Shown piece after piece: positions 43,346 through 63,487 of a DNA stretch of 64,000 nucleotides. Origin of the DNA: an uncultured Salinicoccus sp. (GTDB lineage Bacteria > Bacillota > Bacilli > Staphylococcales > Salinicoccaceae). How positions within the stretch are numbered: position 1 is the first letter of the stretch; every line of letters begins with the position of its first letter. The stretch lies in contig CANLWV010000003.1 in NCBI GenBank assembly GCA_947494965.1, forward strand, positions 171,252 to 235,251. The letters are read 5' to 3'. A program made the position numbers and the translations under genes. The notes below the pieces were generated by a model. The model saw only the letters and a list, made by a program, of their open reading frames with translations. It was not told where the DNA came from and did no database searches.

Positions 43346-43350
43346 TAGTA

Positions 43351-44807: not shown

Positions 44808-45240
44808 TTACCAACCAGTGTTGTCCTCAGTCATCCATTTCGATAACTCAACTGTATTTTCTAAACTCTTATATCCATCTTGATCTAGAATAACTTCTTC
44901 ATTTTCAAATAATTTTTCTACTGTAAGATTTTTATCCCAGTAGCCTTTGTTGGAACCAAAGAAGTTCTCAGCGACTCTTCCTGCTGCCACTTCGAAAATT
45001 TTACCATTATATTGATTATCTTTGTGAAATAACCACAAAACAGCAGGTGAAACCCGTTCAGCTCCAATTCGTTCTCCCTGACGCTTCCTTCTTCGTTTTC
45101 CATACTTCCAGACAATGCTGTGAAAGCACCAAACGCCAACATATTTACCGTAATACCACGCTCCAATCCTTTAGCTGCCAATGTTTTACCTAAAACAAGT
45201 ACCGTTGATTTAGAGGCCGCATCATGACTTATCAAAGGTT
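44808..45240 (-). pseudogene. 5'-truncated, frameshifted SDR (MFE-2-type dehydrogenase-like) remnant
   Basis: Two overlapping minus-strand ORFs in different frames join into one SDR C-terminal half (AASKSTVLVLGKTLAAKG...NMLA, then WLFHKDNQYNGKIFEVAAG). The Rossmann half is absent and the catalytic Tyr position reads Asp. Confidence 0.6.
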
Positions 45241-45673
45241 GACTGATGAATGAGTAAGAGGAGAGGTTTATATTATAATTCTAGGTCTCTAGCTTTGTTT
45301 TCTCCTTCAATCAGCCTATCAATAATACCTTCACAGATTTCCTTATGTTCCTATATAATATCTAGACTCTTGAAGGATTGAAAAACGTAAAGGCAGTTAA
45401 ATATCACATTACCTTTCCTTAAATTAATGTTTATGTTAAGTTTTTTACATAACATACTCGTGCTAGAAAATGATGAAATTATCATTTGTGTTATGAGTTG
45501 TGATGCTGATAACTATTACCTATACAATGAAATGACGGGTTATAGTAATAATGAGCAATGCTTTTATAAAACATGGAATAAGACGATCCCTCGGTACTAT
45601 ACGTGATAAACAGCACTCATTCTATAATTTATTAGATCAAATATCAGAATAAGATATATTTTCTTAAATAATT

Positions 45674-45903: not shown

Positions 45904-46281
45904 TTAATAGATATAGTAGAAGAGAAATTATGGCAAGCCGCTGATAAACTCAGAGGAAGAATGGATGCCTCAGAATATAAAAGTGTGGTTCTTGGATTAA
46001 TCTTCTTAAAGTATGTCTCAGATGCATTTGAAGAGAAAAATGCTGAACTGATTCAAGATGAACATATGGCAGAGAATATTTTCTGGGTGCCAAAAGAAGC
46101 ACGCTGGACATATATCAATGAAAACTCTAAGAAACCTGAAATCGTTCAACTGATTTCTAACGGTGTGAAAAAACACAATAAAGCAGCAATCATGGTGACA
46201 CACGATGAACGTATGCTTGAATACTGTGACCGCGTGTTCCAAATGAACGACGGTAAGCTTGAACAAGTGATAGATTATTAA
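45904..46281 (+). pseudogene. chimeric remnant: type I R-M HsdM N-terminal fragment fused to an ABC-ATPase C-terminal fragment
   Basis: LWQAADKLRGRMDASEYKSVVLGLIFLKYVSDAFEE...NIFWVPKEARW is the HsdM N-terminus. After about nt 46140 the frame reads AAIMVTHDERMLEYCDRVFQMNDGKL, an ABC H-loop/C-terminus. An in-frame stop lies at 45901. Confidence 0.65.
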
Positions 46282-46447: not shown

Positions 46448-48280
46448 ATGTTCAACTACTTATTTACAAACAGGCAGGGACAGTTTCTCGTTGCAGGGAT
46501 TATCTCTATAATTCTCGGATTTGCGTTGATGCCGGTAGAGGGTATCTACAGTACCATTACATTTTACATTGCAATTTTCTTCCTCGGTTTCTATGCATCT
46601 AAAAATGCGGTCATCGAGACAATTAGAGAACGTTCACCAAACGTTGACTTACTGATGATTCTTGCTGCCATTGGTGCAGTCATCATCAATTATGAGTCAG
46701 AAGGTGCACTGTTACTTCTAATCTTTGCGGGTGCTGAAGTGCTTGAGAACTACGCGACGAGTAAATCCACAAAAGCCATTTCTGAACTGATGTCCCACCT
46801 TCCTTCAACAGCAAGTAGAATCGGGGCTGATGGAGAAATTACGGAAGTTCCTACAGAAGAACTGATCCAAGGCGATATCGTCCTTGTTGCTAAAGGGGAA
46901 CAAATCCCAATCGATGGACAGGCAGACCGTCAAGTATCGGTCAACGAAGCAGCGCTGACAGGGGAATCTGTTCCGGTTGTAAAAGAAAAGGAAGAAGAAG
47001 TATTTGCCGGTACGGTAAACGATGGCAACTCGTTTAGATTAACTGTAACGAAAACGAGTGATGATACAATCTTCTCGAATATCGTGCGTATGGTTGAAGA
47101 AGCACAACAAAGACCATCGAAACTATCGAAAACCATCGATCGAATTGAATCCAAATATGTAATCTCTGTTTTAATCGGGGTACCGGTGTTTATCGCTATC
47201 CTTTACTTCTTTAATAATTTAGGATTTGAAGAATCATTCTACCGTGGAATGGTCATGCTGACAGTAGCAAGCCCGTGTGCGCTCGTTGCATCGGCAACAC
47301 TAGCGACACTGAGTGCGATTAGTAACGGTGCGAAAAACGGTATTCTGTTTAAAGGCGGTGCCGCGATGGAGGCACTGAGCACGATGGACATTCTATATAG
47401 TGATAAGACAGGAACACTCACATACGGTGACTTCGTCGTTGAAGAATATGCAGCGGATGAAGATACATTAAAAGAAGTGGTAACGATTGAACAACACTCG
47501 AGTCACCCGATCGCAGAAGCGATTGTGAAGAAGTTTAAAACTTTAGATTTAGATAGTGTCGATCACAGTGAACCAGTAGAAGAAATCGTCGGCAGCGGAA
47601 TGAAGAAAGGCGATATCATCGTCGGTAAACCCGATTCATTTAAAGACTACACAGACCCATCGAACTACAGAGATCAAATCATTGCTGGAAATACGAATAT
47701 CTTTGTCGGAGAGAGTGGACAAATTACTGGATTCTTCTCGCTGGCAGACCAAGTCCGTGATGAAGCAGTACATGCCGTTGAAAACTTCCAAAACTCTGAC
47801 ATTGAAGTCGTACTCTTAACAGGAGATAATGAAACTGTTGCAGAAAAAGTTGCTGGAGAAGTGGGCATTACAGACTACACCGCATCATGTCTCCCTGAGG
47901 ACAAAGTACGCTTTGTAAATGAAAGTCAGAAGAAGAGTAAGATTGTCGGAATGATCGGAGATGGAATCAACGACGCACCCGCACTGGCAAACGCTGATAT
48001 CGGTATTGCAATGGGAAGCGGATCATCCGTTGCGATGGAATCATCAGACGTCGTAATCGTTAAAAACAACTTACAAAAACTATTCTATAGTTTCATGTTA
48101 AGTAATCGACTCAATCGCATTATTTTAGCAAATATTATCTTCTCTATTAGTGTGATTGTTATACTTGTATTATTAAATATATTCGGACTCCTAAATCTAC
48201 CAACAGCAGTGCTCTTCCACGAAGGATCAACGATACTCGTTATCCTAAACGGATTAAGACTGTTAAGAGCGAAAGAATAG
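46448..48280 (+). CDS. heavy-metal P-type ATPase, P1B-4-like (no N-terminal metal-binding domain)
   Basis: TGES (LTGESVPV), DKTGT, GDGINDAP, a TM SPC motif (ASPCALV) and HEGST in the last TM segment. 610 aa with a short N-terminus. Confidence 0.85.
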   Translation: MFNYLFTNRQGQFLVAGIISIILGFALMPVEGIYSTITFYIAIFFLGFYASKNAVIETIRERSPNVDLLMILAAIGAVIINYESEGALLLLIFAGAEVLENYATSKSTKAISELMSHLPSTASRIGADGEITEVPTEELIQGDIVLVAKGEQIPIDGQADRQVSVNEAALTGESVPVVKEKEEEVFAGTVNDGNSFRLTVTKTSDDTIFSNIVRMVEEAQQRPSKLSKTIDRIESKYVISVLIGVPVFIAILYFFNNLGFEESFYRGMVMLTVASPCALVASATLATLSAISNGAKNGILFKGGAAMEALSTMDILYSDKTGTLTYGDFVVEEYAADEDTLKEVVTIEQHSSHPIAEAIVKKFKTLDLDSVDHSEPVEEIVGSGMKKGDIIVGKPDSFKDYTDPSNYRDQIIAGNTNIFVGESGQITGFFSLADQVRDEAVHAVENFQNSDIEVVLLTGDNETVAEKVAGEVGITDYTASCLPEDKVRFVNESQKKSKIVGMIGDGINDAPALANADIGIAMGSGSSVAMESSDVVIVKNNLQKLFYSFMLSNRLNRIILANIIFSISVIVILVLLNIFGLLNLPTAVLFHEGSTILVILNGLRLLRAKE

Positions 48281-48745: not shown

Positions 48746-48819
48746 TTAAGGAAATTAAATGAGACATAAAATAAAGGAAGCCATTTCTGGCTTCCTTTTA
48801 ATTTTAATTAAACTTCGCA

Positions 48820-48837
48820 TCACTTATGATAACCCTC
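48820..48837 (-). repeat. SCC integration-site-like 18-mer (ISS2)
   Basis: Reverse complement is GAGGGTTATCATAAGTGA followed by TGCGAAGTTT, close to the canonical SCC direct repeat plus flank as I recall it. Confidence 0.65.
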
Positions 48838-48875
48838 TGTGGTTAACACATGTGCGTATTGTGTCTTAACACGCA

Positions 48876-48893
48876 CTACTTGTGATACGCTTC
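48876..48893 (-). repeat. SCC integration-site-like 18-mer (ISS3)
   Basis: Reverse complement is GAAGCGTATCACAAGTAG followed by TGCGTGTTAAG. It lies 38 bp from ISS2. Confidence 0.7.
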
Positions 48894-48935
48894 AGCGTAT
48901 CGCCTCATGATGCGGTTTTACTCTTATGAGTGTAG

Positions 48936-50153
48936 TTAATTTCTGTAAGTTATAAAATCAAATCTCTCCATATTTGGAGAGCCATCTTCTAAATACATAC
49001 CAGAATTCTTAACGCCAAATGCATTAGCTAGGCTTGTAAGTAATGGGAATAACGCTGATTCAAAATTCATATCTTCTTTAATATATGCAGGAACAGAATG
49101 AACAATATTCCTATTGATTGGCTTATCGGGATATAAGTCAAAACCTAGGGATTGTTTCCCTTTAACATTCAGAAGTGTAGTAAAGACATAGTATGGTTTT
49201 TGGATTTGAACGTCTTTCATAACGTTTGATAGTGTATATATTTTGCTTGCTAATAACTTTTCGAATTCATACCAATCATATATATAATCTTTGCCATCAA
49301 CATCGTCAGTACGATTCATAAGTCGAACTTCAGTTATTTCAAGACTGCCATTATGAAATAATTGGGTATAGGAACTTGGTGCGTTACTAAATGACTCATA
49401 AAATATCATAAGACCATCCATATTATATACTGCATTGCCCCTGCGGTACCCGCCTCCCATTCCAGTTGGACTAAAAACATCTAACTTCTGATTCTGTTCT
49501 GCTTTTCTTAAATTCACATAATAATTCAATTTTGTACTCACTTCAGGAATAATGTGTATAACTAACACTGAATCATTATCCAAATCCTCAAATATTTCAT
49601 CGCCTAAAATCATGCTCAATCTTTCATTCTTAAAACTAATTATTTTATTTTCTGTTATATTCTTATCCTCGAATGCATTACGTAAGTCATCTAATAACAT
49701 CGGATTCGTCATATTACCATACCGTATAAAGAGCTCATCTTTACTCCCATTATTAATTGCATGTGGTTTATTTAAACTCTTTGGTACATCTATTTTAATA
49801 AGATTTACATTTTCTATCTGCTCAATGTAGCAATCAATTCCATAGATAACCGGTTTGATTTTACTACTTATATATTGTCTAAAAGATTGCTCCCAACTTT
49901 CAAAACTCTTTTGATCTATCCCTACATCTACTAAGGTTGAAGGGTCATGATTTTCATCTTCGGCAACACCCAAGATAACACTTCCTCCATTTGCATTAGC
50001 GAAAGAACTAATAACTTGTCCTAATTTTCTTTTTTTATTATCTTCAAGATTTTTGAATTGCCCATTATTAAATACATACTGTTTATATTCTAACTTCTGT
50101 CCCTCAGGTAATTTAAAATCCCATATTTCTTGTAATGTAACCATTATATCCAC
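48936..50153 (-). CDS. AlbA_2 (Schlafen-like) domain protein with uncharacterised C-terminal domain
   Basis: N-terminus fits the AlbA_2 pattern: KLEYKQ...VISSFANANGGSVILGVAED...NLIKIDVPKSLNKPH...LFIRYGN. I do not recognise the roughly 250-aa C-terminal half. Confidence 0.6.
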   Translation of the reverse strand: MDIMVTLQEIWDFKLPEGQKLEYKQYVFNNGQFKNLEDNKKRKLGQVISSFANANGGSVILGVAEDENHDPSTLVDVGIDQKSFESWEQSFRQYISSKIKPVIYGIDCYIEQIENVNLIKIDVPKSLNKPHAINNGSKDELFIRYGNMTNPMLLDDLRNAFEDKNITENKIISFKNERLSMILGDEIFEDLDNDSVLVIHIIPEVSTKLNYYVNLRKAEQNQKLDVFSPTGMGGGYRRGNAVYNMDGLMIFYESFSNAPSSYTQLFHNGSLEITEVRLMNRTDDVDGKDYIYDWYEFEKLLASKIYTLSNVMKDVQIQKPYYVFTTLLNVKGKQSLGFDLYPDKPINRNIVHSVPAYIKEDMNFESALFPLLTSLANAFGVKNSGMYLEDGSPNMERFDFITYRN

Positions 50154-50306
50154 CTCGTTGGCTATTTTTACTTTTTCAACAGTAAAGTTCAGATAAAATT
50201 TTATTTACTATATACGGGAATTCCAATGATTCTAGTGACGGGGATCAACGTATGTTTTCAATTAAGATTATTACATTATATAAATATATTTCATTGATAT
50301 TCACTT

Positions 50307-51722
50307 CTATGTTAATATCAGTTTTTCATCTATATTCTTTGCCTTTAAAAATTCAGGGTTTTTTAATAATACATTTATAGTTTCTTTTAGGTATTTTTCT
50401 GCCAATTCAACTACTAACCATCTTCTCCCTTTTGAATCTGTTCTATATCTCTTTTTTTCTAAATCAATTTGTTTATTTCCATGAACTACTGCTGAACGGT
50501 AAGTATAGATAGCTTTCATATTTTTAAAAATATCTAGTTTACTTTCTTCTAGAGAGGATTTTTGCAATAAGAATGCACACCTCAAAGCTAACTTGTGTGT
50601 CAGTTCTGATTTCTCATCATCACTTAATAAGGATTCTAAACCAATTACTATATCAATAATTCTATCTCCTTCATTATGTCTATATAGACTATTCTCTAAT
50701 CTAGAAAAAGCTAATTGAATCTTCTTATCCTCACTATAAAATACTTGAATTAGTTTCTCTTTGACTTTATGAAGTTGATTTAAATTTACTTCTGGATACG
50801 ACCCTTTAGTCCAGTAATAATCATTAAATTGAAGAGGATACACTCCCTTAACGCTTCCTTTTAAATCTAGTAGATTTGCATTATACTTTTCTGCCCACCC
50901 TAAGGGTTGAGAAATTATTTGAGCATATCCTGTCAATATATCATTGATTCTCAAAACATTAAAAAATGAATCAATTAAATTTAGTGGATAACTTTCTATT
51001 GAATTAAAAGGATGTTCTGACCAATAATTATAATTATCTACCGCGAAACCTTGAATTTTTAAAGCATGTGTCGCTGACATAATTACAGCATCTGGAATAC
51101 TTTCAGAATAAGAGGTAATATTGGCCCTAGATTGTTGAAATATATCTGACATTTCAACTATAGACATCTGCTCATTTAATTCATAATTTTTTACCTCAAA
51201 CTTAGTAAATAGAATAGGGACATAGATGTTTATATCTAATTTTTCTAAACAAATTCTACTTTCCATTGGTTTATACAATTTTAGAAATTGGTCTCTTGTA
51301 AGATTATTTTCTTCCCCATATTCTAGTAAACTTTTTTCAATTAGGTCATGCATATTAAGTAAAACACTGATTTCCAAAACTTCTAGTGGATCTTCACCAG
51401 GTGGTTGATATACGTTCAAATATCTTTCGGATTTCGTTAAAAGAAATTCCAATTTTTCATATTCTTTATATTTAGTTACATCAATTTTATCTTCATCGTA
51501 ATTTTTGTTTTTCATTAAGTATTTGCCATAATCAATTGGTTTATCCGGTCCAAGCATAGATTTAGAAATTGAAGGGAATCCATTATCTCTATAACTTAAT
51601 ACTGGATAATTCATATAACCTTTTAATAATATTGATGATTCTTTAGAATGTTTTTCTAGGATTTCTTGAACAGCTCTATTAACAATCTCAAATGATAAGT
51701 CAAATATAAGTTTCTTATTCAA
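50307..51722 (-). CDS. large protein with C-terminal HEPN-like (Rx4H) domain
   Basis: 471 aa. C-terminal helical region IVIGLESLL...KLALRCAFLL...MKAIYTYRSAVVHG contains R409-x4-H414 (nt 50481-50498), resembling Apea/Abi-type HEPN RNase motifs. The N-terminal 340 aa are unrecognised. Confidence 0.5.
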   Translation of the reverse strand: MNKKLIFDLSFEIVNRAVQEILEKHSKESSILLKGYMNYPVLSYRDNGFPSISKSMLGPDKPIDYGKYLMKNKNYDEDKIDVTKYKEYEKLEFLLTKSERYLNVYQPPGEDPLEVLEISVLLNMHDLIEKSLLEYGEENNLTRDQFLKLYKPMESRICLEKLDINIYVPILFTKFEVKNYELNEQMSIVEMSDIFQQSRANITSYSESIPDAVIMSATHALKIQGFAVDNYNYWSEHPFNSIESYPLNLIDSFFNVLRINDILTGYAQIISQPLGWAEKYNANLLDLKGSVKGVYPLQFNDYYWTKGSYPEVNLNQLHKVKEKLIQVFYSEDKKIQLAFSRLENSLYRHNEGDRIIDIVIGLESLLSDDEKSELTHKLALRCAFLLQKSSLEESKLDIFKNMKAIYTYRSAVVHGNKQIDLEKKRYRTDSKGRRWLVVELAEKYLKETINVLLKNPEFLKAKNIDEKLILT

Positions 51723-52253
51723 AATTTTCCTCCTATTTTAAAATTCAATATTGAAATTTTATTTTATATTTTAAATTCTTGAGTATAAGCCTTAAAGTTT
51801 TATAGATGATATTACATAACATCTTTTCATATTCATTGAAATTATTAAATTACTTTTTAAATTTTATGTATCTAACTTTGCTTTCACCATCTTCTCCATC
51901 TCATCATGAGTCCTATATTAGTTTGTATTTTCTGATAATTGAATGTATATTATAAACTACTTATTAAGCACATGGAATTATAGTGATTTTTGGAATAAAA
52001 TTGATGAGGTTGAAAACATTAGAATCTTCCGTCACTAAACCGTATAAATATGTTAAATTTTAATCATTATTACAATTCTTTCATTTAAATTTTTTTCAAT
52101 GAGTATTTAAATGAATAAAATATTTCAAATCATTTAGAATCTTGTATTACATTATTTTTAGAACATAAAATGTAATTTAAGTCTAACTGTTTCTAATGAT
52201 ATAATATCATCAGAAACTAAATAAAAGATGGAAAATAAGTAAAAGGTGATTAT

Positions 52254-53546
52254 ATGGAAAATAATGAAGTGGAATATAAACAGGAAATTAATAATGATGA
52301 AGATTTTAAAGCAGAAATCACAGCTTTTTTGAATACCGATATTGGTGGGACAATTATTCTTGGGGTTGATGATGATGGCAATTCGGTACAGTTTGAATCA
52401 GAGTCGGATAAGACAGCAATTTTTAAAGAATGGGAAGAGAAGCTCGCAAACTGGGTTAGTGACTCTTTCGAACCTGAGGTAAGGCATTTAATTGATATAG
52501 AAAGAAATTTTTTTAATATAACAGTGAGTATACAAGGTGGGGACAATAAGCCTTACAGATTTAAAAATAAAAGAAAAAATAGTTATGATCATATTTACAT
52601 TAGGTCTGGAAGTACTAAGCGTAGAGCTAGTACTGATGAAATTAATCGAATGATTAAAAAACATGACTCTAATACATTCGATAGTTCAGTATCGAAGTTT
52701 CAAAATTTAAATTTTGATTACGTAAAAGGGATTTTCCGTGATTTAGAAAGATCGTTCGATGAATTAAGCTTAAATCTCAAAAAAACCCAAAATCAAAAAT
52801 ATAATTATGCTGCGTATCTTCTTAGTGAAGAAAATGAGAATGTTATCAAATTAGCCGTATTTGATGGCATAGATGTCGATTCTTTTAGAGATAAAAAAGA
52901 ATTTTATGGCTCGTTACCTAAACAAATAGACTATCTACTTGAGACTATTGATATCCATAATAATAAACAAGTTACAATTACTAAGTCCTCACAACGAGTA
53001 GAGCTCACTTCATATCCTGAAATTGCTTTACGAGAATCTATTATCAATGCTTTTGTCCATCGTGATTATACTCTAAGTTCAGACATAAAAGTTGAGATTT
53101 ATGATGACAGAATGACTATTTCTTCTCCGGGTTCAATACCTGATGGTTTAACCGTTGATGATATTAAAGAAGGTTCTAACCCTAAAAGAAATCCGGTTTT
53201 GATTCATGCTCTAGATAAAATGCAATATATCGAAAATTATGGCTCTGGTATTAGAAGGATTTTTTCTAGTTATAAAGGATTTAAAGAACCTAAAATCATA
53301 GCCACAGAAAACCAATTTAAGATAGTTTTATTCAACAGGAATTTCGTAGAAGAAATTGATAATCATTCTGATTCTATAGTTCAATATTTAAATATGAATG
53401 GACCAAGCTCACGGTTTGAAATTCAAGAAAACTTACATTTGCAAAAAAGTTATACTTTAGATTTATTAAAAAAATTACGTGATGACAATATAATTAATAT
53501 TGAAGGCTCAGGTCGATCTACAAAATATCGATTGAAGGAAAAATAA
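52254..53546 (+). CDS. COG2865-type AlbA_2 + HATPase_c_4 + C-terminal wHTH protein
   Basis: N-terminus EVEYKQ...ITAFLNTDIGGTIILGVDDDG...NKPY...IYIRSGSTKRRAS. C-terminal half RESIINAFVHRDYTLSSDIKVEIYDDRMTISSPGSIPDG...KRNPVLIHALDKMQYIENYGSGIRRI. Confidence 0.7.
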   Translation: MENNEVEYKQEINNDEDFKAEITAFLNTDIGGTIILGVDDDGNSVQFESESDKTAIFKEWEEKLANWVSDSFEPEVRHLIDIERNFFNITVSIQGGDNKPYRFKNKRKNSYDHIYIRSGSTKRRASTDEINRMIKKHDSNTFDSSVSKFQNLNFDYVKGIFRDLERSFDELSLNLKKTQNQKYNYAAYLLSEENENVIKLAVFDGIDVDSFRDKKEFYGSLPKQIDYLLETIDIHNNKQVTITKSSQRVELTSYPEIALRESIINAFVHRDYTLSSDIKVEIYDDRMTISSPGSIPDGLTVDDIKEGSNPKRNPVLIHALDKMQYIENYGSGIRRIFSSYKGFKEPKIIATENQFKIVLFNRNFVEEIDNHSDSIVQYLNMNGPSSRFEIQENLHLQKSYTLDLLKKLRDDNIINIEGSGRSTKYRLKEK

Positions 53547-53550
53547 TATC

Positions 53551-53936
53551 GGCTAACTCTTAAAATATTGATATTACTACTCTTTAGATGCTTTTCTTAT
53601 CGCCCGGTCCACCGGGCGATAATTTTATTTATATGCTACAACCCTTGATATCATTATATTTTAGATGCTTTTCTTATCGCCCGGTGGACCGGACGATAAT
53701 TTCATTTATATGCTAAAATCCTTGATATCACTATCCTTTAGATGCTTTTCTTTTCGCCCGGTGGACCGGACGATAATTTTATTTATATGCTACAACCCTT
53801 GATATCATTATATTTTAGATGCTTTTCTTTTCGCCCGGTGGACCGGACGATAATTTTATTTATATGCTACAACCCTTGATATCATTATATTTTAGATGCT
53901 TTTCTTTTCGCCCGGTGGACCGGACGATAATTTTAT
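53551..53936 (+). repeat. 77-bp tandem repeat array (4 full copies plus partial copies), each unit with a GC-rich hairpin
   Basis: The tagatgc unit starts at 53585, 53662, 53739, 53816 and 53893, an exact 77-nt period. Units 3 and 4 are identical. Each carries tcgcccgg-N4-ccgg(g/a)cga followed by taatttt. Confidence 0.9.
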
Positions 53937-53998
53937 AAATCTCTATTTATCTTGGATTTCACTAATTTCTACACTATAAAAATTACTGCTAACACACA

Positions 53999-54016
53999 CT
54001 ACTTGTGATAGTTTCC
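53999..54016 (-). repeat. degenerate SCC integration-site-like 18-mer (ISS4)
   Basis: Reverse complement is GGAAACTATCACAAGTAG. The segment taacacAcactacttgtgata is 21/22 identical to the ISS3 region. Confidence 0.45.
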
Positions 54017-54129: not shown

Positions 54130-54960
54130 ATGCCACAAATATTTCTAAACGATTTGCTACGCTTTTCTAAAGACGAAATGAAAGAGGTTAAAATCAAATT
54201 CAATAAATCAAATGGAATTGATGATCCCATCGAGTTATTTAAAGAGAACCCTCATATTATTAACCATCAATGGCTGTTCTGGAGAAACAAGAGACGTTAT
54301 TTCAATGTCGGTCAGATTGCAATTTGTCTTGTACGATTATCATATGATACTTGGTTATTAACAACAATAAAAAGAGTCACTAAAGAACTCGGTATCTCAA
54401 ATGGAATAAATTATGAAGGGGAAGAGCTAGAGGGTTTTTCTCAGTATTATGGGCGTATCATAATAAAGTTCAAAAAGTCATTTCCTTCTCAAGGCCGATC
54501 GTACGAAGGACTTCATCAAGAATTGGTTGTACAACAAATACTACCTACTACTTTTGATGGGGAGGATTTCCCAGGTTATGATAAAGTTAAGCTTTCATAC
54601 CGACAGTTAGCTAGCGTCATAAATAGTGGCAAAAGAGATTGGATTGCTGCGTTAGAAAATCAAAAGGCTGTATATCTTATTACAGATAAATATAGTGGGA
54701 AATTATATGTCGGATCAGCTACAAGCATGAGTCAGATGTTGCTTACAAGATGGACAAATTATGTGCGTAATGGTCATGGAAACAATAAAGAGCTGGTTGA
54801 TCTGGTTAATAAAAATGGATTCAATTATGTAAAACAGAACTTTCAATACACTATCTTAGAGAATTATAACGGAAAAGTGGATGATAAAATTATCTTGCAA
54901 AGAGAATCTTATTGGAAGGAAGCTCTACAAAGTCGACAGTTCGGTTACAATTCAAATTGA
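54130..54960 (+). CDS. GIY-YIG nuclease-domain protein with uncharacterised N-terminal domain
   Basis: Start at MPQIF (GGAGGAA RBS). C-terminal GIY-YIG: AVYLITDKYSGKLYVGSA...R...NGHG...ESYWKEAL...FGYN. Confidence 0.65.
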   Translation: MPQIFLNDLLRFSKDEMKEVKIKFNKSNGIDDPIELFKENPHIINHQWLFWRNKRRYFNVGQIAICLVRLSYDTWLLTTIKRVTKELGISNGINYEGEELEGFSQYYGRIIIKFKKSFPSQGRSYEGLHQELVVQQILPTTFDGEDFPGYDKVKLSYRQLASVINSGKRDWIAALENQKAVYLITDKYSGKLYVGSATSMSQMLLTRWTNYVRNGHGNNKELVDLVNKNGFNYVKQNFQYTILENYNGKVDDKIILQRESYWKEALQSRQFGYNSN

Positions 54961-55108
54961 GATTCGTACCATCCATATAACTATTGATGATTTGGATTAA
55001 GATAAAGAATGAATCAAAACATATAAAAAAACTATCCAGTAGTCCATTTAATGCTTCAATCAGTCGTTAATGTGAAGCATTAAAGTAAGTCTCTTTTCTA
55101 TTAATATA

Positions 55109-55642
55109 TTAATACTTATCCAGTATTCTCCTCCATTCATTTTGTGCATCCTGATCTTTCGATACTATAAATTGAACGGTCGGGTTGAGAGACCCAACAG
55201 TCCCATCATCATCATATTCACCAAAACCTGTAGATGATCCTACATTTTCTTTTTTCCCAATCAATTCATATACAACACCATTATCTGCTAGCATGTACTT
55301 ATATATGTTCGTGTTTTCTACAGCTAATCTGTTGTATCCCTCTGCAATTCCAGGTGTGGGAGCCGTTTCGTCTCTTCCATAATCACCACTCAAAGGTGTA
55401 TAGAATACGACACCACCAATAGCATGTATGTCAAAGCTTTCAAATCCGGGATTATCAAGATTTTGGACTTGAACTTGCCCATCTGGTGTTAGGGCGTACC
55501 AATCACCACTTCCAGCTGCACCATGTTGAAAGTAAAAAGTTGTGACGGCTAGGTTGCCTATTTTTGCACGATCTACTGCCCAATTAAAAAATTCTTCCGT
55601 CATCATCCGTTTTTCTTCCGAGGTGTACTCTTTTACTGACAT
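55109..55642 (-). CDS. hypothetical protein (possibly a 5'-truncated lipoprotein)
   Basis: 177-aa ORF. The in-frame upstream sequence reads like an acidic lipoprotein linker (NAVKESTLNEASTDEESVEVNDD) but is closed by a stop with no signal peptide. Confidence 0.4.
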   Translation of the reverse strand: MSVKEYTSEEKRMMTEEFFNWAVDRAKIGNLAVTTFYFQHGAAGSGDWYALTPDGQVQVQNLDNPGFESFDIHAIGGVVFYTPLSGDYGRDETAPTPGIAEGYNRLAVENTNIYKYMLADNGVVYELIGKKENVGSSTGFGEYDDDGTVGSLNPTVQFIVSKDQDAQNEWRRILDKY

Positions 55643-55785
55643 TTCTATGTCGTCATTTACCTCAACACTTTCTTCATCTGTGCTCGCCTCATTTAGTGTT
55701 GATTCCTTTACAGCATTCTACCTTGCGGTCTACCTACATGCGGTCTATGATAACGTTACATAAACAAGACTATTAACTCACGCTA

Positions 55786-56130
55786 TCAAATATCTATATT
55801 TTCTTTTTCTAGCATATAATTACATCTACTACATTTATTAGTATCAATAGCTATACTCATTTCATTCCACTCAATTCTTTCAGCACATAATTCACATTCA
55901 TGAATATAGTAATTATTCAATCCTCGTGAAATTACTTCAAGTTGCTTATTAGACAAAGAATTTACCCCATTGTCTATTGCATACTTGATGGAACCACTGG
56001 CACTTTCATGGAAATCAACCAAAACTCCTAATCTTTTCAACTCTACTAAATACTCTTTAAATTCTGCTGCTTCCCCATCACTCATATTTACTAATCGTTC
56101 ATAAATCTGCGTTACATCTTTATTTAACAT
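55786..56130 (-). CDS. small protein with C-terminal CxxC...CxxC zinc ribbon
   Basis: 114 aa with HECELCAERIEW...NKCSRCNY. Confidence 0.45.
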   Translation of the reverse strand: MLNKDVTQIYERLVNMSDGEAAEFKEYLVELKRLGVLVDFHESASGSIKYAIDNGVNSLSNKQLEVISRGLNNYYIHECELCAERIEWNEMSIAIDTNKCSRCNYMLEKENIDI

Positions 56131-56245
56131 CTAACCACTCCCTATAATATATTTTACTAAATGCTGTAATTTGTTTTATATTAACAATGTTTGTAATGAT
56201 AAGTAAAATAAATATATATAATATAATTGAACTATCTAACAGGAG

Positions 56246-57802
56246 ATGAAGATGATGGACGTCTCATATGAAAATTCAAATCCCCTAAAACTGATTTGCG
56301 AGTTCGTCAACAAAAATAGCAATATATATATATTAGAAGAATGGATTAAGGACTCAGAAAGAATAAATGTCTGTTTTTCTGATACTAATGCTGCGTTAGC
56401 TGACTCACTCTACTTCAAAGTGAGTGATATACCTCACATTTTAAAATTAGATACAAATCCAGAATCGATTGGCAAAGATGAAAAAACAGAAAGTATTCAA
56501 TTTTTTTGTAACAGGTATATAAACCTCCTCAAAGAATATATGACAAATGAACTAATCAATGAAAAGAGATACTCTAATCGAATGGATAAATCTCGACTCC
56601 TCATGGCGATAGGCCGGTTTCGTGAATATATAATGGAGGAGGTAGATATACACGGACAAAAGCTATATGAGACTCTTCGAGATGATGATGATGACTCCAT
56701 TCACAAAGAGGTTGAACTTCTCAATATGGAATATTCATTATCGGATCAGAACGTCCAGATAGAGGAAGAAGCGCTATTCCGATTAGTATGCGCACCATAC
56801 ATTCGCAACATTGAAGAAGAGCAAGATAACGATAGAGATAAAACTAAAACGCATAAAAATAATCAAGAACCAATTGAAAACTCCGATATGCTAAGGTCTC
56901 TCACCATCCCGAAGATGGAAGCTACAGAAGATACGTCAATTTACGAGTTAGATTGTAAAAATGGACAAATAAAATCTGAGAATTACCTCGATGCATCCGG
57001 CCTCAATGGATATATAAAGAAATTATTGGAAATTCACTTAAAACACCATATTGATAGGCTTGGTAAAAATGGAAAAATACCTAAAAGAAAGATTTACAGT
57101 GAATATGGTGTTACACCCAGCTTATTAGGTAGCACAAATAAGACTTCAGATGAAGTCAGACAGTATGATGAAGACATCAAGCATATAGAAAATGAGTTGG
57201 ATATTGCCCAAGTCATAATGATTTCTTTTCTGATGTACCTCAGATACAAAGGTCGTCACGAAATCGAAGAATCAAGTAAATTCAGTAAAACCACAAAGCT
57301 ACATCAAGTCATCAATTTTCCAAATTCTGATATTACTGTCCCATCACATTTCATTGAAGAGTTACAAGAAGAAATTAAAGCGTACGCACAAGAAACTAAA
57401 ATATCTACTGATGAGCACGATAAAAGCGATTCAAAATTAGTTAAGTTGATAGAGTCTTTTCTCCTATCGCGGTTTGGTCTCCCATCTTTAAATGACTACA
57501 ACAATTTTTCACGACTAATTGATTTTATCCAGTACAATGTCAAAGGTTTACTAATTGATGAGTCAGATCACATATCATTACTAGGCATTGATTCATTAAT
57601 CTGCAATATTACTTCAGCTTATAACACATGGTTGGAGACCTTACATTCTAATGATACCTCTATCCATTACGAAACACTTTACAATGATGATATCGAGAAA
57701 GTTCATTCATCTTTAAACATTTCTCAGGAGAACGTTGAACCTCTCTTCGATACATCTTCACAAGATTCATTTATAAAACAGAGGTTTCGTGCTTTGCTAT
57801 AA
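56246..57802 (+). CDS. large hypothetical protein upstream of the ccr gene complex
   Basis: 518-aa ORF (the true start may be the ATG at 56252). Its position, size and direction match the conserved large ORF seen upstream of cch in SCC elements, but this is positional inference only. Confidence 0.5.
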   Translation: MKMMDVSYENSNPLKLICEFVNKNSNIYILEEWIKDSERINVCFSDTNAALADSLYFKVSDIPHILKLDTNPESIGKDEKTESIQFFCNRYINLLKEYMTNELINEKRYSNRMDKSRLLMAIGRFREYIMEEVDIHGQKLYETLRDDDDDSIHKEVELLNMEYSLSDQNVQIEEEALFRLVCAPYIRNIEEEQDNDRDKTKTHKNNQEPIENSDMLRSLTIPKMEATEDTSIYELDCKNGQIKSENYLDASGLNGYIKKLLEIHLKHHIDRLGKNGKIPKRKIYSEYGVTPSLLGSTNKTSDEVRQYDEDIKHIENELDIAQVIMISFLMYLRYKGRHEIEESSKFSKTTKLHQVINFPNSDITVPSHFIEELQEEIKAYAQETKISTDEHDKSDSKLVKLIESFLLSRFGLPSLNDYNNFSRLIDFIQYNVKGLLIDESDHISLLGIDSLICNITSAYNTWLETLHSNDTSIHYETLYNDDIEKVHSSLNISQENVEPLFDTSSQDSFIKQRFRALL

Positions 57803-58481: not shown

Positions 58482-60278
58482 ATGGAGCTCAAGAAAAATG
58501 GTTGGTATCACTATGATTCTAAAGCAAAGAAGGAAGTTTACGTTGCACCGCCCATTGATGTAACTGAGAGATACAAGGATTTGGAGAGCAATGAAATCCT
58601 CATTACTATTGAAGATGATCAGGGCGCCAAATACCACGGTACGATGGAGGTATTGGGGTCCAGGAACATCGAGGATCTTCTTAAATATGGTTTTCCCATA
58701 ACCCCTGCCAACAAAAACCTCCTCTGTGGTGCATTGGTTGAAAGAGTGAATAAGCTGCCGTTCAAAATAATCTACACGAATGTGGGCCTTACTAAGCACA
58801 ATAACAATTATCAATTCCAAGGGCACACGCTATTAAGCAGTGAAGGGCTTGAAGGGGTGTTGAAGTCCGACTCTCCTTATGATCTACAACCTTCCGGTAA
58901 TATAGATACATGGTTACAGATGTATACAGATCATGTTACAGGCAATACACGCTTGGAGTTGATTTTGGCCCTTGGTGTATCTGGGATTGTTATCACTTAT
59001 TTGAAAAAGGTTTGTGGTGTCGATCTTCATAATCCTATTGTTCATTTATATGGGGACTCCAGTACAGGTAAAACGACCGCAGCGCAATTGGCTCTTTCCG
59101 TCGGAGGCAATCCTAAGAAGGAAAGGGGATTGTTCAAGACCTGGAATAGTACGGCCAACGGTTTGGTTAGTATGCTGTCTGGCAATTATGGAATCCCTCT
59201 CCTATTTGACGAAATTTCAACCATCAGTATAAGAAGCTTGACGACTTTAATCTACACGTTAGCTGAGGGTCTAGAGCGAGGACGTTCAAATATTAACGGC
59301 CAGCATAAAGAACAGAGGGAATGGTCTACCGTGATGTTATCGACAGGAGAAGTGGGCATTGATGAGTTAGGGGCTGCCAAGCAGAATACGGGCATCGGTG
59401 TCAGATTGCTTCAATTTGAAGAAGTGTTCACTCAAAGTTCTAACCAGTCAGAAAGCATCAAAAGGGTAATAAATAAAAATTACGGGCATGTACTTCCCCT
59501 TATCGCAAAAAAGGTTATCGAATCAAACGAAGAAGATATATCTCATTTCTACAATGAGAGGCAGCATAAGTTCCATGAAGCCTTAAAGGGACAACACAAA
59601 GTAGTGGAAAGGGTGGCAAACCTCTATGCGGCTGTCACACTCGCAGCTTTTATATTCAACGAAACCTTTGGTGAATATAACATTTCCATGGACGAGGCTA
59701 AGATATTTGATTTCCTAGTCGCTCATGAAAAGAAAGTCAGCACTACTCGTGACCTTGGAGAACAAGCCTATGAGAAGCTCATCCAATACCTTGTGACCAA
59801 CCAGAATAAAATTGCCGATGCAAAAAGTATTTACAGTAACTCCACAGGGACAATCGGTTTCTATGACGAAACAAGGAAGGATATATATGCCATAAAGATT
59901 TTAAAAGGGGCATTCGAAGACTTCATAAACCACCATAGCGATTTGCAAGGTAGCAAAAAGGTTGCTAAAGCATTAAAAGAAAAAAATTATTTCATCGTTC
60001 CACTTGGCAGAGATCGAATTGGTCAACAAGAGACCGTCAAACCAGGCCATAGAGAGACATTCTATACTCTACACCTTAAACCAGGTGATCATACGCTTTT
60101 CAATCCCTTGAACGATCCTGAGAAAAAAGATTCTGATCCTGTTGAACAAAGTCCTAAAGCAAAAGAGTCTGGTCCCATCGGACAAAGCCCCGAAGCAAAA
60201 AGGATATTCAAAGGGCTTGTTTCAACATCCAATTCCACTGAGGATTCGGATATCGACGATGAAGACATTGGTATTTAA
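58482..60278 (+). CDS. cch: Cch-type DUF927 replicative helicase
   Basis: 598 aa. Walker A GDSSTGKTT, Walker B LLFDEIS. Located directly upstream of ccrA as in SCC ccr gene complexes. Confidence 0.75.
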   Translation: MELKKNGWYHYDSKAKKEVYVAPPIDVTERYKDLESNEILITIEDDQGAKYHGTMEVLGSRNIEDLLKYGFPITPANKNLLCGALVERVNKLPFKIIYTNVGLTKHNNNYQFQGHTLLSSEGLEGVLKSDSPYDLQPSGNIDTWLQMYTDHVTGNTRLELILALGVSGIVITYLKKVCGVDLHNPIVHLYGDSSTGKTTAAQLALSVGGNPKKERGLFKTWNSTANGLVSMLSGNYGIPLLFDEISTISIRSLTTLIYTLAEGLERGRSNINGQHKEQREWSTVMLSTGEVGIDELGAAKQNTGIGVRLLQFEEVFTQSSNQSESIKRVINKNYGHVLPLIAKKVIESNEEDISHFYNERQHKFHEALKGQHKVVERVANLYAAVTLAAFIFNETFGEYNISMDEAKIFDFLVAHEKKVSTTRDLGEQAYEKLIQYLVTNQNKIADAKSIYSNSTGTIGFYDETRKDIYAIKILKGAFEDFINHHSDLQGSKKVAKALKEKNYFIVPLGRDRIGQQETVKPGHRETFYTLHLKPGDHTLFNPLNDPEKKDSDPVEQSPKAKESGPIGQSPEAKRIFKGLVSTSNSTEDSDIDDEDIGI

Positions 60279-60294
60279 AAAAGGAGGAAGCTGA

Positions 60295-60384
60295 ATGAAA
60301 AGCAAAGAGATGCAGTCATTCATCACTTCGCTCGTCAATATTCTCGAGGCAGAAGTGAAAGTAGAAGATGAGAATTTTAAATAG
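60295..60384 (+). CDS. 29-aa ORF between cch and ccrA
   Basis: AAAAGGAGGAA RBS 5 nt upstream. Encodes MKSKEMQSFITSLVNILEAEVKVEDENFK. It falls below the ORF-track length cutoff. Confidence 0.3.
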   Translation: MKSKEMQSFITSLVNILEAEVKVEDENFK

Positions 60385-60435
60385 ATTGAGCTATAGGGGA
60401 GAAGCTGTAAGGGCTTCTCCACTTCTATATAAAGG

Positions 60436-61839
60436 ATGATGAGAAGCATGAACAAAAAAACCATTGCCTATGCACGACAGTCTCTACAGAAGAGTAATCG
60501 CGAATCTTCGACCAGAGGCCAGATTGAGGCCATCCGTAAATATTGCTGTACGAATAAAATTGAAATAGATGAAGTATGGACGGAGGTCGCATCAGGGAAA
60601 ACCATGAAGCGGGAAAAGATGCAACATCTTATCCACCATATCAAACAGGGGTATGTCGAGACATTAATTGTCTGGCGCTTAGATAGAATCTCACGGACGA
60701 CAAAAGATTTACTGACATTCTTCACACTTTGCACAGATCACAAAGTTAACATCATCAGCATCAACGATGAAACCTTGGGATATGAGAACTCGATGGATAA
60801 GTTCAAAGTTCAGATACTAGCCAGTATGGCTGAACTGCAGCGAAATATTATCAGTGAAAACAAAGTGAACACAAACCGAGTAAAGTTTCAAAGAGATCAT
60901 ATCCCCTTCCATGTGACACCATTTGGTTACCGTTACATCAATAAACAGTATGTCGTTGAGGAAAATGAAGCATATACTGTGCGCGAGGTGTATCGACTAT
61001 ATACTGAAGGTCTCGGTTATAAAAAGATATCTCGCTGTACAGAAGAACGGCCCGACCTTGTCTTTTGTCAGCCTTCTCACATCAGACAAATTCTGCTCAA
61101 CCGAAAGTATTATGGATACTATAAGGGAGCTCATGGGGTAGTGGCCAGTATTATTCCTGCGATTATTTCCCAGGAAATCTATGAAAAAGCGGAACAGCTT
61201 CGTCATTCCAAAGCACAGAATAGAAAGCATACAGTACTTGCTAATCTGCGCAGGAAAATAAAATGCCCCTTATGCAACCACACCATGACTACCTATCATA
61301 ATCGGAACCAAACGAACTCAACACCGGTTTATGCATGCAGTCAAAGATTCCGCAAACAGTATCACGCCTGTTCAATGCGCCCGATACCCATCTCCAAGCT
61401 TGAGTCAGAAGCTCTTTATGTTATCAAGTCATTCTTATCCACCGATGAAATACTCAAAGAAATTCACCAAGAAATAGTTAATCAGCTAAAAGAAAAACAA
61501 GCAAGATCCAAGAGGACTGAAGTTGAGATAGAGCGTCAGAAAGAAGTATTGGTGCATGAATTGGCTGCAGGAAATATCGATATAAAAATCTTCAAGCAGT
61601 CTATTGAAGCTTTGCAGGATACTACTCATGTGGCAGAACCCCATATTGATACAGATGAAGTTACATTACAAAAGATTGCTTCACTGATAGAGCAGAAGAC
61701 AGAAGCAAACGATGCGCTTTGGCAACTCGTGGAAAAAGTAGAAGTGGATGAATCAGGGGCCTTATCCGGGGTTTACTTAAAGGATTTATCCATAAATATA
61801 CTCAATAGAAAGGAAGTAATGAAATATGAATCCATATAA
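60436..61839 (+). CDS. ccrA: cassette chromosome recombinase A (large serine recombinase)
   Basis: IAYARQS catalytic-serine motif, VWRLDRISR, a recombinase domain, a Cys-rich zinc ribbon (CPLCNH...YACS) and a coiled-coil tail. Overlaps ccrB by 14 nt. The true start may be MNKKT at 60448. Confidence 0.85.
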   Translation: MMRSMNKKTIAYARQSLQKSNRESSTRGQIEAIRKYCCTNKIEIDEVWTEVASGKTMKREKMQHLIHHIKQGYVETLIVWRLDRISRTTKDLLTFFTLCTDHKVNIISINDETLGYENSMDKFKVQILASMAELQRNIISENKVNTNRVKFQRDHIPFHVTPFGYRYINKQYVVEENEAYTVREVYRLYTEGLGYKKISRCTEERPDLVFCQPSHIRQILLNRKYYGYYKGAHGVVASIIPAIISQEIYEKAEQLRHSKAQNRKHTVLANLRRKIKCPLCNHTMTTYHNRNQTNSTPVYACSQRFRKQYHACSMRPIPISKLESEALYVIKSFLSTDEILKEIHQEIVNQLKEKQARSKRTEVEIERQKEVLVHELAAGNIDIKIFKQSIEALQDTTHVAEPHIDTDEVTLQKIASLIEQKTEANDALWQLVEKVEVDESGALSGVYLKDLSINILNRKEVMKYESI

Positions 61840-63487
61840 ACAGAATGAAAGAATCAAGGTAGCTCTGTATGCCCGGGTCAGTACTGCGATGCAGGCAAGC
61901 GATGGCTTCTCCATTGATGCCCAAATTGAAACTCTAACACAGCATTGTAAAAAGTTAGGGTATGACATTTATAATATATACATCGATAAAGGGCTTAGTG
62001 GGAGTGATATGAGCAAACGCTCTAGCTTATTAAACATGTTGGAAAATGCCAAACAACAAAAGTTCGACAAAGTATACGTCTGGAAGCTATCAAGGTTGGC
62101 CAGAAACGTCCGGGACTTGATTTCCATGGTAGAAGTGCTACAAGACCATTCTGTTGATTTTCATAGTTATAGTGAGAGCTTCGAAGTAACCACTAGTACT
62201 GGCATGTTCATGATGCAGATGTTGGCTGCAGTCAGTGAGTATGAAAGAAATATCATCATAGATAATGTGAAATTGGGTCAAGCCCAACGTGCAATGAACG
62301 GTTATACCAATGGCAAACTGCCACTCGGTTATAACAAGCCGGATTCCCCTCGAATTCCTATAGAAATCAACCCCTATGAAGCTGAAATCATCAAGCAGAT
62401 ATTTAATATGTATGAAGCAGGTCACGGGTTACGGTCAATAGCTAATTCGCTCAATCAGAAAGGGTATCGTACAAAGAAGGGAAACGCCTTTAGTATAACG
62501 GCAATAAAAACGGTTCTCACAAATCCTATCTACTCTGGCATGGTAAGGTTCAATCAATACTTGGACTACGCGAAATATGGAAGAAAGTTTAAGAACGAAA
62601 ACCCAATACTTGTTGAAGGTAAGCATGAGGCAATAATCTCAAAAGAGCAATGGGAGAATGTCCAAGACAAGTTACAGCAACGTTCTTTTATGCCTAAAGT
62701 AATGGGAGATGGCTCAAATCTTTTAACTGGTATACTCAGGTGTCCACAATGCGGCTCAGCCATGATGGCTGCTAATACCACCAACACGTTAAAAGACGGG
62801 ACCAAGAAAAGGATTCGATATTATTCCTGTCAGCAATTTAGAGCAAAAGGGTCGACTGTATGCAGTGCAAACAGTGTTAGAGCAGATGATATAGAAGGAA
62901 TGATCCAATCTAATATCATACAACTCATCAACCAACCTACTATCTTAAATATGGTGGTAGAGGAAAACAATCAGCGTATTCAAAAAGAGCAGATGGCACT
63001 AAAGCAACAACATCCCCAACTCGAAGCTGACATCATTGAGTTGGGCGAAAAAATTACTCGACTTAAAAATGCTGCAGCAGCCGACGAAGATGTGCATACA
63101 ATGCTGCAGCCAGAGATCGAATCGCTCAGAACCGAGTTGGATTCAAAGAAGATGTTGATACAATCACATCATGCTAAAGTCGAAGATACAACAGAAGAGT
63201 CCAAAACATATAGTGAAGAAGAATTAAAACAGGTACTGGAAAAGCTTAGTCGCTCATTCAGTGCAAAGAATAAAATGCAGATTAAAAAGATGTACCTGAC
63301 AATCATAGATAAGGTTACATTTTCAAAGAAAAAAGGGAATCGAAAGATTGAGGATATTACCATTCATCTGAAAAAAGAAATCGGTACGGTGTTGTTGGAG
63401 AATATGAATACAAGCGGAGCTTCTGAAAAGGAAGCTCCGCTTTCTTTGTTTTCTGAGGGCATCATCATCAAATGCAATGCGCAGTGA
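61826..63487 (+). CDS. ccrB: cassette chromosome recombinase B (large serine recombinase)
   Basis: VALYARVST catalytic motif and VWKLSRLARN. LLTGILRCPQCGSAMMAANTTNTLKDGTKKRIRYYSC...CSANSVRAD closely matches the CcrB zinc-ribbon region as I recall it. Confidence 0.9.
   Translation: MNPYKQNERIKVALYARVSTAMQASDGFSIDAQIETLTQHCKKLGYDIYNIYIDKGLSGSDMSKRSSLLNMLENAKQQKFDKVYVWKLSRLARNVRDLISMVEVLQDHSVDFHSYSESFEVTTSTGMFMMQMLAAVSEYERNIIIDNVKLGQAQRAMNGYTNGKLPLGYNKPDSPRIPIEINPYEAEIIKQIFNMYEAGHGLRSIANSLNQKGYRTKKGNAFSITAIKTVLTNPIYSGMVRFNQYLDYAKYGRKFKNENPILVEGKHEAIISKEQWENVQDKLQQRSFMPKVMGDGSNLLTGILRCPQCGSAMMAANTTNTLKDGTKKRIRYYSCQQFRAKGSTVCSANSVRADDIEGMIQSNIIQLINQPTILNMVVEENNQRIQKEQMALKQQHPQLEADIIELGEKITRLKNAAAADEDVHTMLQPEIESLRTELDSKKMLIQSHHAKVEDTTEESKTYSEEELKQVLEKLSRSFSAKNKMQIKKMYLTIIDKVTFSKKKGNRKIEDITIHLKKEIGTVLLENMNTSGASEKEAPLSLFSEGIIIKCNAQ

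Follow-up and report, generated by a model that had tools for sequence, protein, structure and literature searches.

The 64,000-nucleotide stretch of DNA analysed here (the window) belongs to the chromosome of an uncultured Salinicoccus sp. (assembly GCA_947494965.1, contig CANLWV010000003.1, positions 171,252 to 235,251) and, from ~40 kb to past 64 kb, is occupied by a composite island of the staphylococcal cassette chromosome (SCC) type. A Salinicoccus host is also what protein clustering shows, since a housekeeping protein and the ccrB-like recombinase of the island each fall into a 90%-identity cluster with Salinicoccus proteins. Inside this island lies a recombinase-less segment with three long open reading frames (ORFs), whose products we call proteins A, B and C, and judging from its sequence the region from 48.87 to 54.01 kb is best read as one 5.1-kb cassette bounded by attachment (att) sites that carry the SCC integration site sequence (ISS). 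An earlier note on this DNA had reported the three ORFs, which are present at its coordinates with the gene for protein B on the minus strand, and had described the segment as very AT-rich, as is borne out by a GC content of 26-33% over 49-54 kb compared with ~45% in the window's left 40 kb. Proteins A and C are prokaryotic Schlafen proteins, while protein B joins a large N-terminal region of its own kind to a C-terminal domain that resembles HEPN ribonucleases (RNases). It is probable, although with appreciable doubt, that the segment is a defence cassette of the SCC type, moved by the neighbouring CcrAB recombinases, in which three mutually independent RNases of the abortive-infection type are stacked.

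The limits of the cassette are marked by a 21-nt direct repeat, TAACAC[G/A]CACTACTTGTGATA, located at 48867-48887 and 53990-54010 (20 of 21 positions identical), with a weaker third copy at 44634, and the SCC integration-site core is present in the reverse complement of this repeat. Matches to the ISS pattern TATCAYAARTRRTGCG fall on the minus strand at 44639, 48816, 48872 and 53995; the window holds six matches in total where 0.75 are expected, and at least six were reached in none of 100 shuffles. The delimitation of the segment by SCC-type attachment-site repeats, as described in the earlier note, is thus upheld. The ISS core of the 21-nt repeat resembles the 3′ ends of rlmH in Salinicoccus sp. 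CNSTN-B1 (locus L064) and Macrococcoides canis (L072), and the layout of the junction, AACCGCAT..GATACGCTGAA..TATCA.AA.TAGT, occurs three further times in the rlmH island of CNSTN-B1 (L064 12334, 16855 and 20989). Two features place the segment among SCC-type elements: the flanking direct repeats with Ccr integration-site sequence, and the presence in the tandem cassette of cch together with the ccrA/ccrB large serine recombinases. The rlmH gene lies outside the window, and because the ISS copies sit in minus-strand orientation its predicted position is beyond 64 kb. At the left edge (48816-48920), minus-strand ISS cores at 48816 and 48872 are 56 bp apart and are followed by an inverted ISS-like arm at 48895-48918, an arrangement suggestive of either a mini-cassette with almost no cargo or a scar left where two cassettes meet.

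Proteins A and C share an N-terminal AlbA_2 domain (PF04326), detected by Pfam in A with an E value of 1e-14 (55.4 bits) and in C with 2.5e-16 (60.7 bits), both against a gathering cut-off of 25.3, which confirms what the earlier note had recognised. The Schlafen nuclease motif E-x4-E-x-K is intact in both proteins. A regex search finds it in 24 of the 28 members of the protein A family, which comprises 28 clusters, mostly from Staphylococcaceae, and in the protein C family E2, E7 and K9 are invariant. The likely start of protein A is the ATG at 50144 used by the database gene call, giving 402 aa. Its last ~240 residues have no Pfam match, in keeping with the earlier description of this tail as unrecognisable. 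When the A and C families are aligned profile to profile, only AlbA_2 aligns and homology ends at A residue ~160; by hhalign, the A tail also has no relationship to the N-terminal region of B, and a shared sensor was rejected on these two results. Protein C continues into a HATPase_c_4 domain (E 2.8e-22) and a winged helix-turn-helix (wHTH) for which the sequence of C gives only a weak signal (E 0.006-0.02), with the Pfam domains HTH_11, HTH_DeoR, MarR_2 and HTH_24 annotated in many homologues of this large family. This succession of HATPase_c_4 and HTH corresponds, by domain prediction, to the Slfn-HisKinase-HTH (COG2865) architecture that the earlier note had assigned. Since the E-x4-E-x-K motif is kept, A and C are more likely effectors in their own right, probably RNase effectors of the prokaryotic Schlafen class, and their earlier casting as sensors or regulators is not sustained.

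Protein B was modelled by AlphaFold with high confidence (predicted local distance difference test, pLDDT, 90.7; predicted template modelling score, pTM, 0.90 for the full-length protein). In the model, helices make up the N-terminal part, the middle is alpha/beta, and the C-terminal domain is helical throughout apart from one small inserted beta-hairpin. Critical to the assignment of the C-terminal domain is the stretch YTYRSAVVHG, within which R409, S410, H414 and G415 are invariant in all 36 aligned family members, as are E363, R381 and K403. HEPN domains are characterised by an R-x4-6-H motif that closes core helix 3 and extends into the loop after it, by a polar residue after the arginine, and by a second acidic residue in helix 2, often within E-x3-[KR] (PMC3710099). 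The predicted structure of B shows all three, because helix 395-413 ends at V413 with H414 as the first loop residue (pLDDT ~91), S410 follows R409, and E373 (E or D in 36/36), three residues before K377 (K or R in 34/36), opens the preceding helix 374-386. Furthermore, NCBI and JGI independently label some B homologues as 'HEPN domain-containing' or 'Apea-like HEPN'. From the model and these motifs, the C-terminal domain is likely but not proven to be a HEPN domain. The preceding ~305 residues, which the earlier note could match to nothing, have no relative in Pfam, NCBIfam, PADLOC, PDB sequences or Foldseek searches, although they are conserved within the family, where A217, H219, G265, Q268, W276 and W304 are invariant in the same alignment.

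The family to which B belongs is broadly distributed. In an exhaustive profile search, 12,730 representative clusters carry the C-terminal domain at E≤1e-3; ~294 of them (E≤1e-30) look like full-length B-type proteins, and the B family itself amounts to ~300 clusters at 50% identity from Bacillota, Pseudomonadota, Acidobacteriota, Bacteroidota, Chloroflexota and others. The context of these genes was assembled from 63 genome loci of many phyla, obtained by a scan with a 15-sequence alignment, and the three loci of the closest relatives, 66 in all. In Salinicoccus sp. CNSTN-B1, a 71%-identical homologue follows rlmH directly and has a 2.7-kb cassette to itself, which is bounded by ISS copies and shows the junction sequence seen in the window. 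Among Bacillus homologues, one lies beside Cas3/type I-C and another beside a Peptidase_U49 (Lit-like) gene, and in other phyla the two genes on either side of B relatives include LmuA/B, GajA/B, NucC, AbiGi/Gii, PifA, ShosA, methyltransferases, integrases and serine recombinases. Such neighbours are the habit of a stand-alone defence-island gene. No B gene was found on phages, and one distant gene is carried by a Rhodococcus plasmid.

Two kinds of relative widen the picture of the C-terminal domain. In Paenibacillus xylanexedens (L011 6374-7246) and an Acidobacteriaceae genome (L025 8850-10151), the B homologue is followed closely downstream by a second gene whose product has a B-like (HEPN-like) C-terminal domain, matched by the domain profile at E 2e-10 and 2e-9, respectively; the pairs are tandem paralogues with different N-termini. 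In addition, proteins of 420-550 aa at loci L049-L063 and L083 share only the C-terminal domain with B and differ in their ~300-aa N-terminal regions; none is detected by Pfam, and the gene for one of them adjoins a RAMP-superfamily gene on a Rhodococcus plasmid. These sequences suggest a large sensor-HEPN superfamily that lies outside curated models. Tentatively, and short of calling it probable, we propose that B is the founder of an uncharacterised family of single-protein immune RNases, in which a previously unseen ~305-aa sensor (with H219, Q268, W276, W304 and R199 as invariant residues) would gate a divergent HEPN nuclease. The logic would be that of ApeA with an unrelated sensor and possibly a new infection signal, and the C-terminal domain would mark a HEPN branch of >12,000 clusters beyond the curated libraries.

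Whether A, B and C form one system was examined in 82 loci, the 66 with B relatives and 16 with relatives of A or C, by phmmer, neighbour clustering and profile hidden Markov models (HMMs). With phmmer, no homologue of A, C or UzuA (a defence protein encoded just beyond the right boundary) was found in the 63 B loci; AlbA_2 profiles matched in 0 of the 66 B loci, and B profiles matched in 0 of the 16 loci encoding A or C relatives. Clustering found no conserved neighbour of B, the best recurring cluster being present in 5 of the 63 loci at varying distances. The earlier note had proposed a single three-gene system with the AlbA_2 proteins as a sensor/regulator pair and had named beforehand, as grounds for abandoning it, that the genes never co-occur elsewhere; given the lack of conserved co-occurrence across these loci, even with profile HMMs, the A+B+C system was rejected. 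The three genes are, as far as comparative sequence analysis goes, independent passengers. Their homologues are found apart from one another: A homologues stand by themselves, with HsdMS/McrBC as neighbours in S. capitis and within a TIR/UzuA island behind rlmH in M. canis, a C homologue is a single gene inserted directly after rlmH in Enterococcus durans (L081), between rlmH and housekeeping genes, and C homologues also adjoin the cch-ccrAB core in S. gallinarum-type SCC elements. Candidate partners of the individual genes did not hold up either. In S. capitis and M. canis, the A homologues are followed by genes for proteins of 353-361 aa that have no relationship to one another or to any sequence of the window, and a 349-aa ORF preceding C homologues has no relative in the window.

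In four contigs with S. gallinarum-type SCC (L077-L080), this unannotated 349-aa ORF and the C-type Slfn-HATPase_c_4 gene after it form a conserved pair that directly adjoins DUF1413-cch-ccrAB. The two genes could belong together as a unit or be a piece of the SCC core, and variable defence cargo (a GIY-YIG gene, an OLD-like ATPase, AbiA) lies downstream. The E. durans insertion, for its part, indicates that the rlmH 3′ end is a hotspot for such genes outside Staphylococcaceae.

We hypothesize that the cassette, which encodes no recombinase, would depend for its excision and movement on the CcrAB encoded ~6 kb away, and that each of its three proteins would be a self-contained predicted RNase with its own regulatory or sensor part, inactive until infection. 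In protein A, a Schlafen/AlbA_2 nuclease with an intact catalytic motif is fused to a ~240-aa domain that is presumably the sensor. In protein B, the C-terminal HEPN domain would dimerise to create a metal-independent RNase site built from R409 and H414 and supported by E373 and K377, and the conserved N-terminal region would keep this site off until an infection cue arrives, in a manner resembling ApeA. In protein C, the Schlafen nuclease is joined to a GHKL-type HATPase_c_4 module and a wHTH. Upon activation, each protein would cleave tRNA or other RNA and thereby arrest the infected cell (abortive infection). In essence, three differently triggered RNA-targeting defences would be stacked next to Uzume.

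Several observations weigh against this proposal. No curated HEPN profile is significant for B, the best, and the one weak Pfam match that recurs, being PF18739 (HEPN_Apea) at E 0.02 in 2 of 18 isolated domains, and Foldseek searches of the PDB with the full-length and domain-only models return generic helical bundles and nothing significant, so that the HEPN assignment rests on motifs, on the helix topology of a predicted model and on source annotations. The HEPN claim of the earlier note therefore stands in its motif, with R-x4-H invariant in 36/36 sequences and the helix placement fitting, and finds no significant profile or Foldseek support. The defence neighbours of B are qualitative evidence, given without a matched background rate. 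As for C, COG2865 proteins are commonly annotated as transcriptional regulators and might regulate rather than act as effectors, and of the prokaryotic Schlafens tested for defence two of seven protected, neither of them from the HisKinase-HTH class (10.1101/2025.07.24.666596). Finally, B and A point the same way, and the 153 bp that separate them contain no predicted terminator, so local co-transcription of the two is possible.

This last arrangement, together with the adjacency of all three genes inside one att-bounded cassette and the divergent orientation of B and C around a 531-bp intergenic region, is also what favours the original model of a single system, or its reduced B+A version, with B as the HEPN effector and the AlbA_2 proteins as regulators or nucleic-acid sensors. 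We regard it as quite improbable: co-occurrence is lacking in the 82 related loci even by profile HMMs, close homologues of each gene occur apart from the other two, A and C have intact nuclease catalytic motifs of their own, and A is preceded by a Shine-Dalgarno sequence of its own, with promoter-like sites lying in the 153-bp gap. Somewhat more plausible, yet still unlikely, is that the genes serve the mobile element, with B as an addiction or toxin-like stabiliser of the cassette and C, and perhaps A, as regulators or maintenance factors of the SCC. HEPN domains are common as toxins of toxin-antitoxin systems (PMC3710099), and C, with its wHTH, has homologues annotated as transcriptional regulators that sit directly beside cch-ccrAB in S. 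gallinarum-type SCC. An antitoxin-like partner (a minimal nucleotidyltransferase, MNT, or a small ORF), however, is neither beside B nor conserved elsewhere, B relatives inhabit many non-SCC defence islands across phyla, the nuclease catalytic triad kept by A and C would be needless for a pure regulator, and the E. durans C homologue lies alone after rlmH with no SCC core. Least credible, and very improbable in our view, is that the genes are decaying or silent cargo hitch-hiking on the SCC island with no current function; the region is very AT-rich and the neighbouring cassette does contain obvious gene remnants (among them a fusion of type I methyltransferase and ABC-ATPase fragments at 45961-46281), but none of the three ORFs is shortened compared with its family, and the invariant and catalytic residues are all intact. 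We therefore retain the defence cassette of three independent RNases as the preferred reading, which also keeps the earlier note's general idea of an abortive-infection-type RNase defence in an SCC-type mobile context.

The cassette setting has a precedent in staphylococci, in which tandem SCC-like defence cassettes at rlmH were described in 2024 (Nat Commun; PMC11470126) and CcrAB was shown experimentally to excise tandem, ccr-less defence cassettes next to SCCmec (PMC11470126). Like these, the Salinicoccus cassette is att/ISS-bounded, has no ccr of its own, adjoins a cch-ccrAB cassette and carries defence-type genes within a low-GC composite island with several ISS copies. It differs in its host and in its cargo of three single-gene candidates in place of restriction-modification, CRISPR or Nhi, and in this comparison rlmH is outside the window and mobility is predicted from genes and repeats. 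The Schlafen genes have precedents as well. Taboada et al. (2025, 10.1101/2025.07.24.666596) showed that prokaryotic Schlafens (pSlfns) are anti-phage tRNases encoded by single genes and fused to sensor domains of diverse kinds, active RNases among them being defined by E-x4-(E/D)-x-K and the architectures including Slfn-HisKinase-HTH (19%) and unannotated fusions (17%) (10.1101/2025.07.24.666596), and a protective Schlafen of E. faecium with an unannotated C-terminus was found by a search near serine recombinases (PMC12632615). Proteins A and C likewise have an AlbA_2/Slfn domain with this motif fused to other domains; C shares the Slfn-HisKinase-HTH architecture, and A resembles the unannotated-fusion class and the E. 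faecium protein. The validated pSlfns, in contrast, carry other fusions (Ig-like, DUF262), and the C-terminal domain of A is limited to its small, mostly staphylococcaceal family.

Among the closest parallels of protein B is ApeA, a HEPN anticodon nuclease that works as a single protein and that deoxydinucleotides activate (10.64898/2026.01.26.701840). Its N-terminal and middle domains build the ligand pocket, away from the HEPN site, through which anticodon-loop cleavage is switched on (10.64898/2026.01.26.701840). Both proteins have an N-terminal helical part, a mixed alpha/beta middle and a C-terminal HEPN (candidate, in B) with extra helices and insertions, and both are encoded by single genes in defence islands with no conserved partner; this likeness is one of architecture only, comparing the layout of a predicted model of B with a published description. 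B is shorter (~470 vs ~580 aa), matches no PADLOC ApeA model and no ApeA_NTD1, and reaches HEPN_Apea at the sub-threshold level given above; it has no detectable sequence relationship to ApeA. SadR of S. aureus, a HEPN-type RNase whose gene neighbours rlmH and which acts against phages and plasmids (PMC13590631), is comparable as a single gene of the SadR/Abi_C (AbiJ-like) kind with a C-terminal R-x-H-type RNase motif, and both it and B occupy the rlmH/SCC integration hotspot. B has no Abi_C (PF14355) match in Pfam and a much larger, different N-terminal region, and so belongs to a different family. With HEPN-MNT (HepT/MntA) systems B has in common a minimal HEPN RNase (a predicted one, in B) with an R-x4-H site, but it has a fused 305-aa N-terminal region and no adjacent MNT or antitoxin gene; HEPN-MNT toxin-antitoxin was rejected, with no such ORF in the flanking intergenic regions and no conserved neighbour across the 63 loci. 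Membership in DARNA/PD-T7-3 was also rejected, as the HEPN domain of DARNA is N-terminal and PADLOC gave no match.

B has no match in Pfam, NCBIfam, PADLOC (0 families at E≤0.1) or PDB sequences; Pfam found nothing significant in B, the 36 members, isolated domains, distant relatives sharing only the C-terminal domain or the NCBI-labelled HEPN homologues; PDB sequence and profile searches returned nothing; and Foldseek gave no significant match in BFVD. A HepT-type HEPN toxin chain (7bxo_F) is among the weak fold matches of B (E 2.6, not significant). The PADLOC run suggested in the earlier note accordingly matched no model to B, and its UzuA model matched the neighbouring gene.

Two of the three genes, A and C, are not new in kind, because prokaryotic Schlafens acting as single-gene defences have been on record since 2025 (10.1101/2025.07.24.666596; PMC12632615), and the cassette setting was documented in 2024. 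The earlier suggestion of an undescribed defence thus narrows to the B family, which looks uncharacterised. No new multi-gene system is revealed, and the value of the locus lies in protein B: it is a clean candidate for the discovery of a new sensor-HEPN immune protein, because it combines a high-confidence model, invariant candidate catalytic residues, a conserved N-terminus, broad spread and a defence-island habit with absence from the defence-gene libraries tested. If the preferred reading is true, the SCC/rlmH hotspot as a vehicle of phage defence extends beyond Staphylococcus to Salinicoccus, and one small recombinase-less cassette stacks three RNA-targeting abortive-infection proteins with different triggers.

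Table 1. Features of the three-gene cassette and of the adjoining island, in window coordinates.
Feature	Position	Strand	Description or basis
Further perfect ISS core	48816-48831	-	ISS pattern search
Left boundary, ISS/att-type direct repeat	48867..48893	-	Reverse complement GAAGCGTATCACAAGTAGTGCGTGTTA; repeat family, ISS pattern, likeness to rlmH ends
Inverted ISS-like arm GCGTATCGCCTCATGATGCGGTTTT	48895..48918	+	Read from the sequence; with the adjacent repeat, an SCC cassette junction
Protein A, 405 aa	48936..50153	-	Prokaryotic Schlafen: N-terminal AlbA_2 and ~240-aa family-specific C-terminal region
Schlafen catalytic motif E17-x4-E22-x-K24 (EGQKLEYK) of protein A	50082..50105	-	Regex search
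Protein B, 471 aa	50307..51722	-	~305-aa N-terminal region (helical and alpha/beta subdomains), then HEPN-like helical C-terminal domain
HEPN-like C-terminal domain of B, residues ~310-471	50310..50795	-	Domain model, pLDDT 91.3
R409-S-A-V-V-H414, predicted HEPN RNase active-site motif of B	50481..50498	-	Family alignment and model
Protein C, 430 aa	52254..53546	+	AlbA_2 residues 2-125, HATPase_c_4 276-359, C-terminal HTH; Slfn-HisKinase-HTH (COG2865)
Catalytic motif E2-x4-E7-x-K9 (ENNEVEYK) of protein C	52257-52280	+	Motif search
77-bp tandem repeat, 4.6 copies	53583..53936	.	Tandem Repeats Finder (TRF) score 631; 94% matches; between gene C and right ISS
Right boundary, ISS/att-type direct repeat	53990..54010	-	20/21 identical to 48867-48887; ISS match 53995-54010
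UzuA (Uzume defence protein, GIY-YIG), first gene of next cassette	54130..54960	+	PADLOC PDLC03973, E 9.3e-47
SCC core: cch (DUF927 and HTH_56), ccrA-like and ccrB-like large serine recombinases	58482..63487	+	Pfam
cch, DUF927/HTH_56 gene	58482-60278	+	Pfam
ccrA/ccrB-type pair, Resolvase, Recombinase and Zn_ribbon_recom	60436-61839 and 61826-63487	+	Pfam

Between gene C and the right boundary, each unit of the 77-bp tandem repeat holds a GC-rich hairpin, TCGCCCGGTGGACCGGACGA, amid AT-rich DNA, and within the window this hairpin is confined to this spot. Downstream of gene C, the first of these copies is scored as an intrinsic terminator (terminator-like site 53597-53622). The repeat matched no Rfam family, Rfam otherwise returned only sub-threshold eukaryotic miRNA noise within the cassette, and the intergenic regions of the cassette contain no credible small antitoxin ORF.

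Beyond the boundaries, intact ORFs of 119, 109, 403, 234, 105, 177, 114 and 518 aa (40000-45300 and 55100-57800) have no significant match in Pfam or PADLOC; as cargo of an SCC-type defence island, they could be further defence candidates. To the left of the cassette, a chimeric 106-aa ORF (45961-46281, plus strand) matches the N-terminus of a type I restriction methyltransferase over residues 1-69 (PADLOC E 2e-23), and its remainder reads like the C-terminus of an ABC-transporter ATPase. It is probably the remnant of a type I restriction-modification system in the neighbouring cassette, and it adjoins a gene for a heavy-metal P-type ATPase (46448-48280). To the right, UzuA is full length, aligning to positions 5-278 of the 278 of its profile, and a 77% identical gene is present in the rlmH-proximal island of M. 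canis; its start in the ORF list is a TTG, 17 codons too early. Further on, the ccrB-like protein falls in the same 90%-identity cluster as a recombinase of Salinicoccus roseus.

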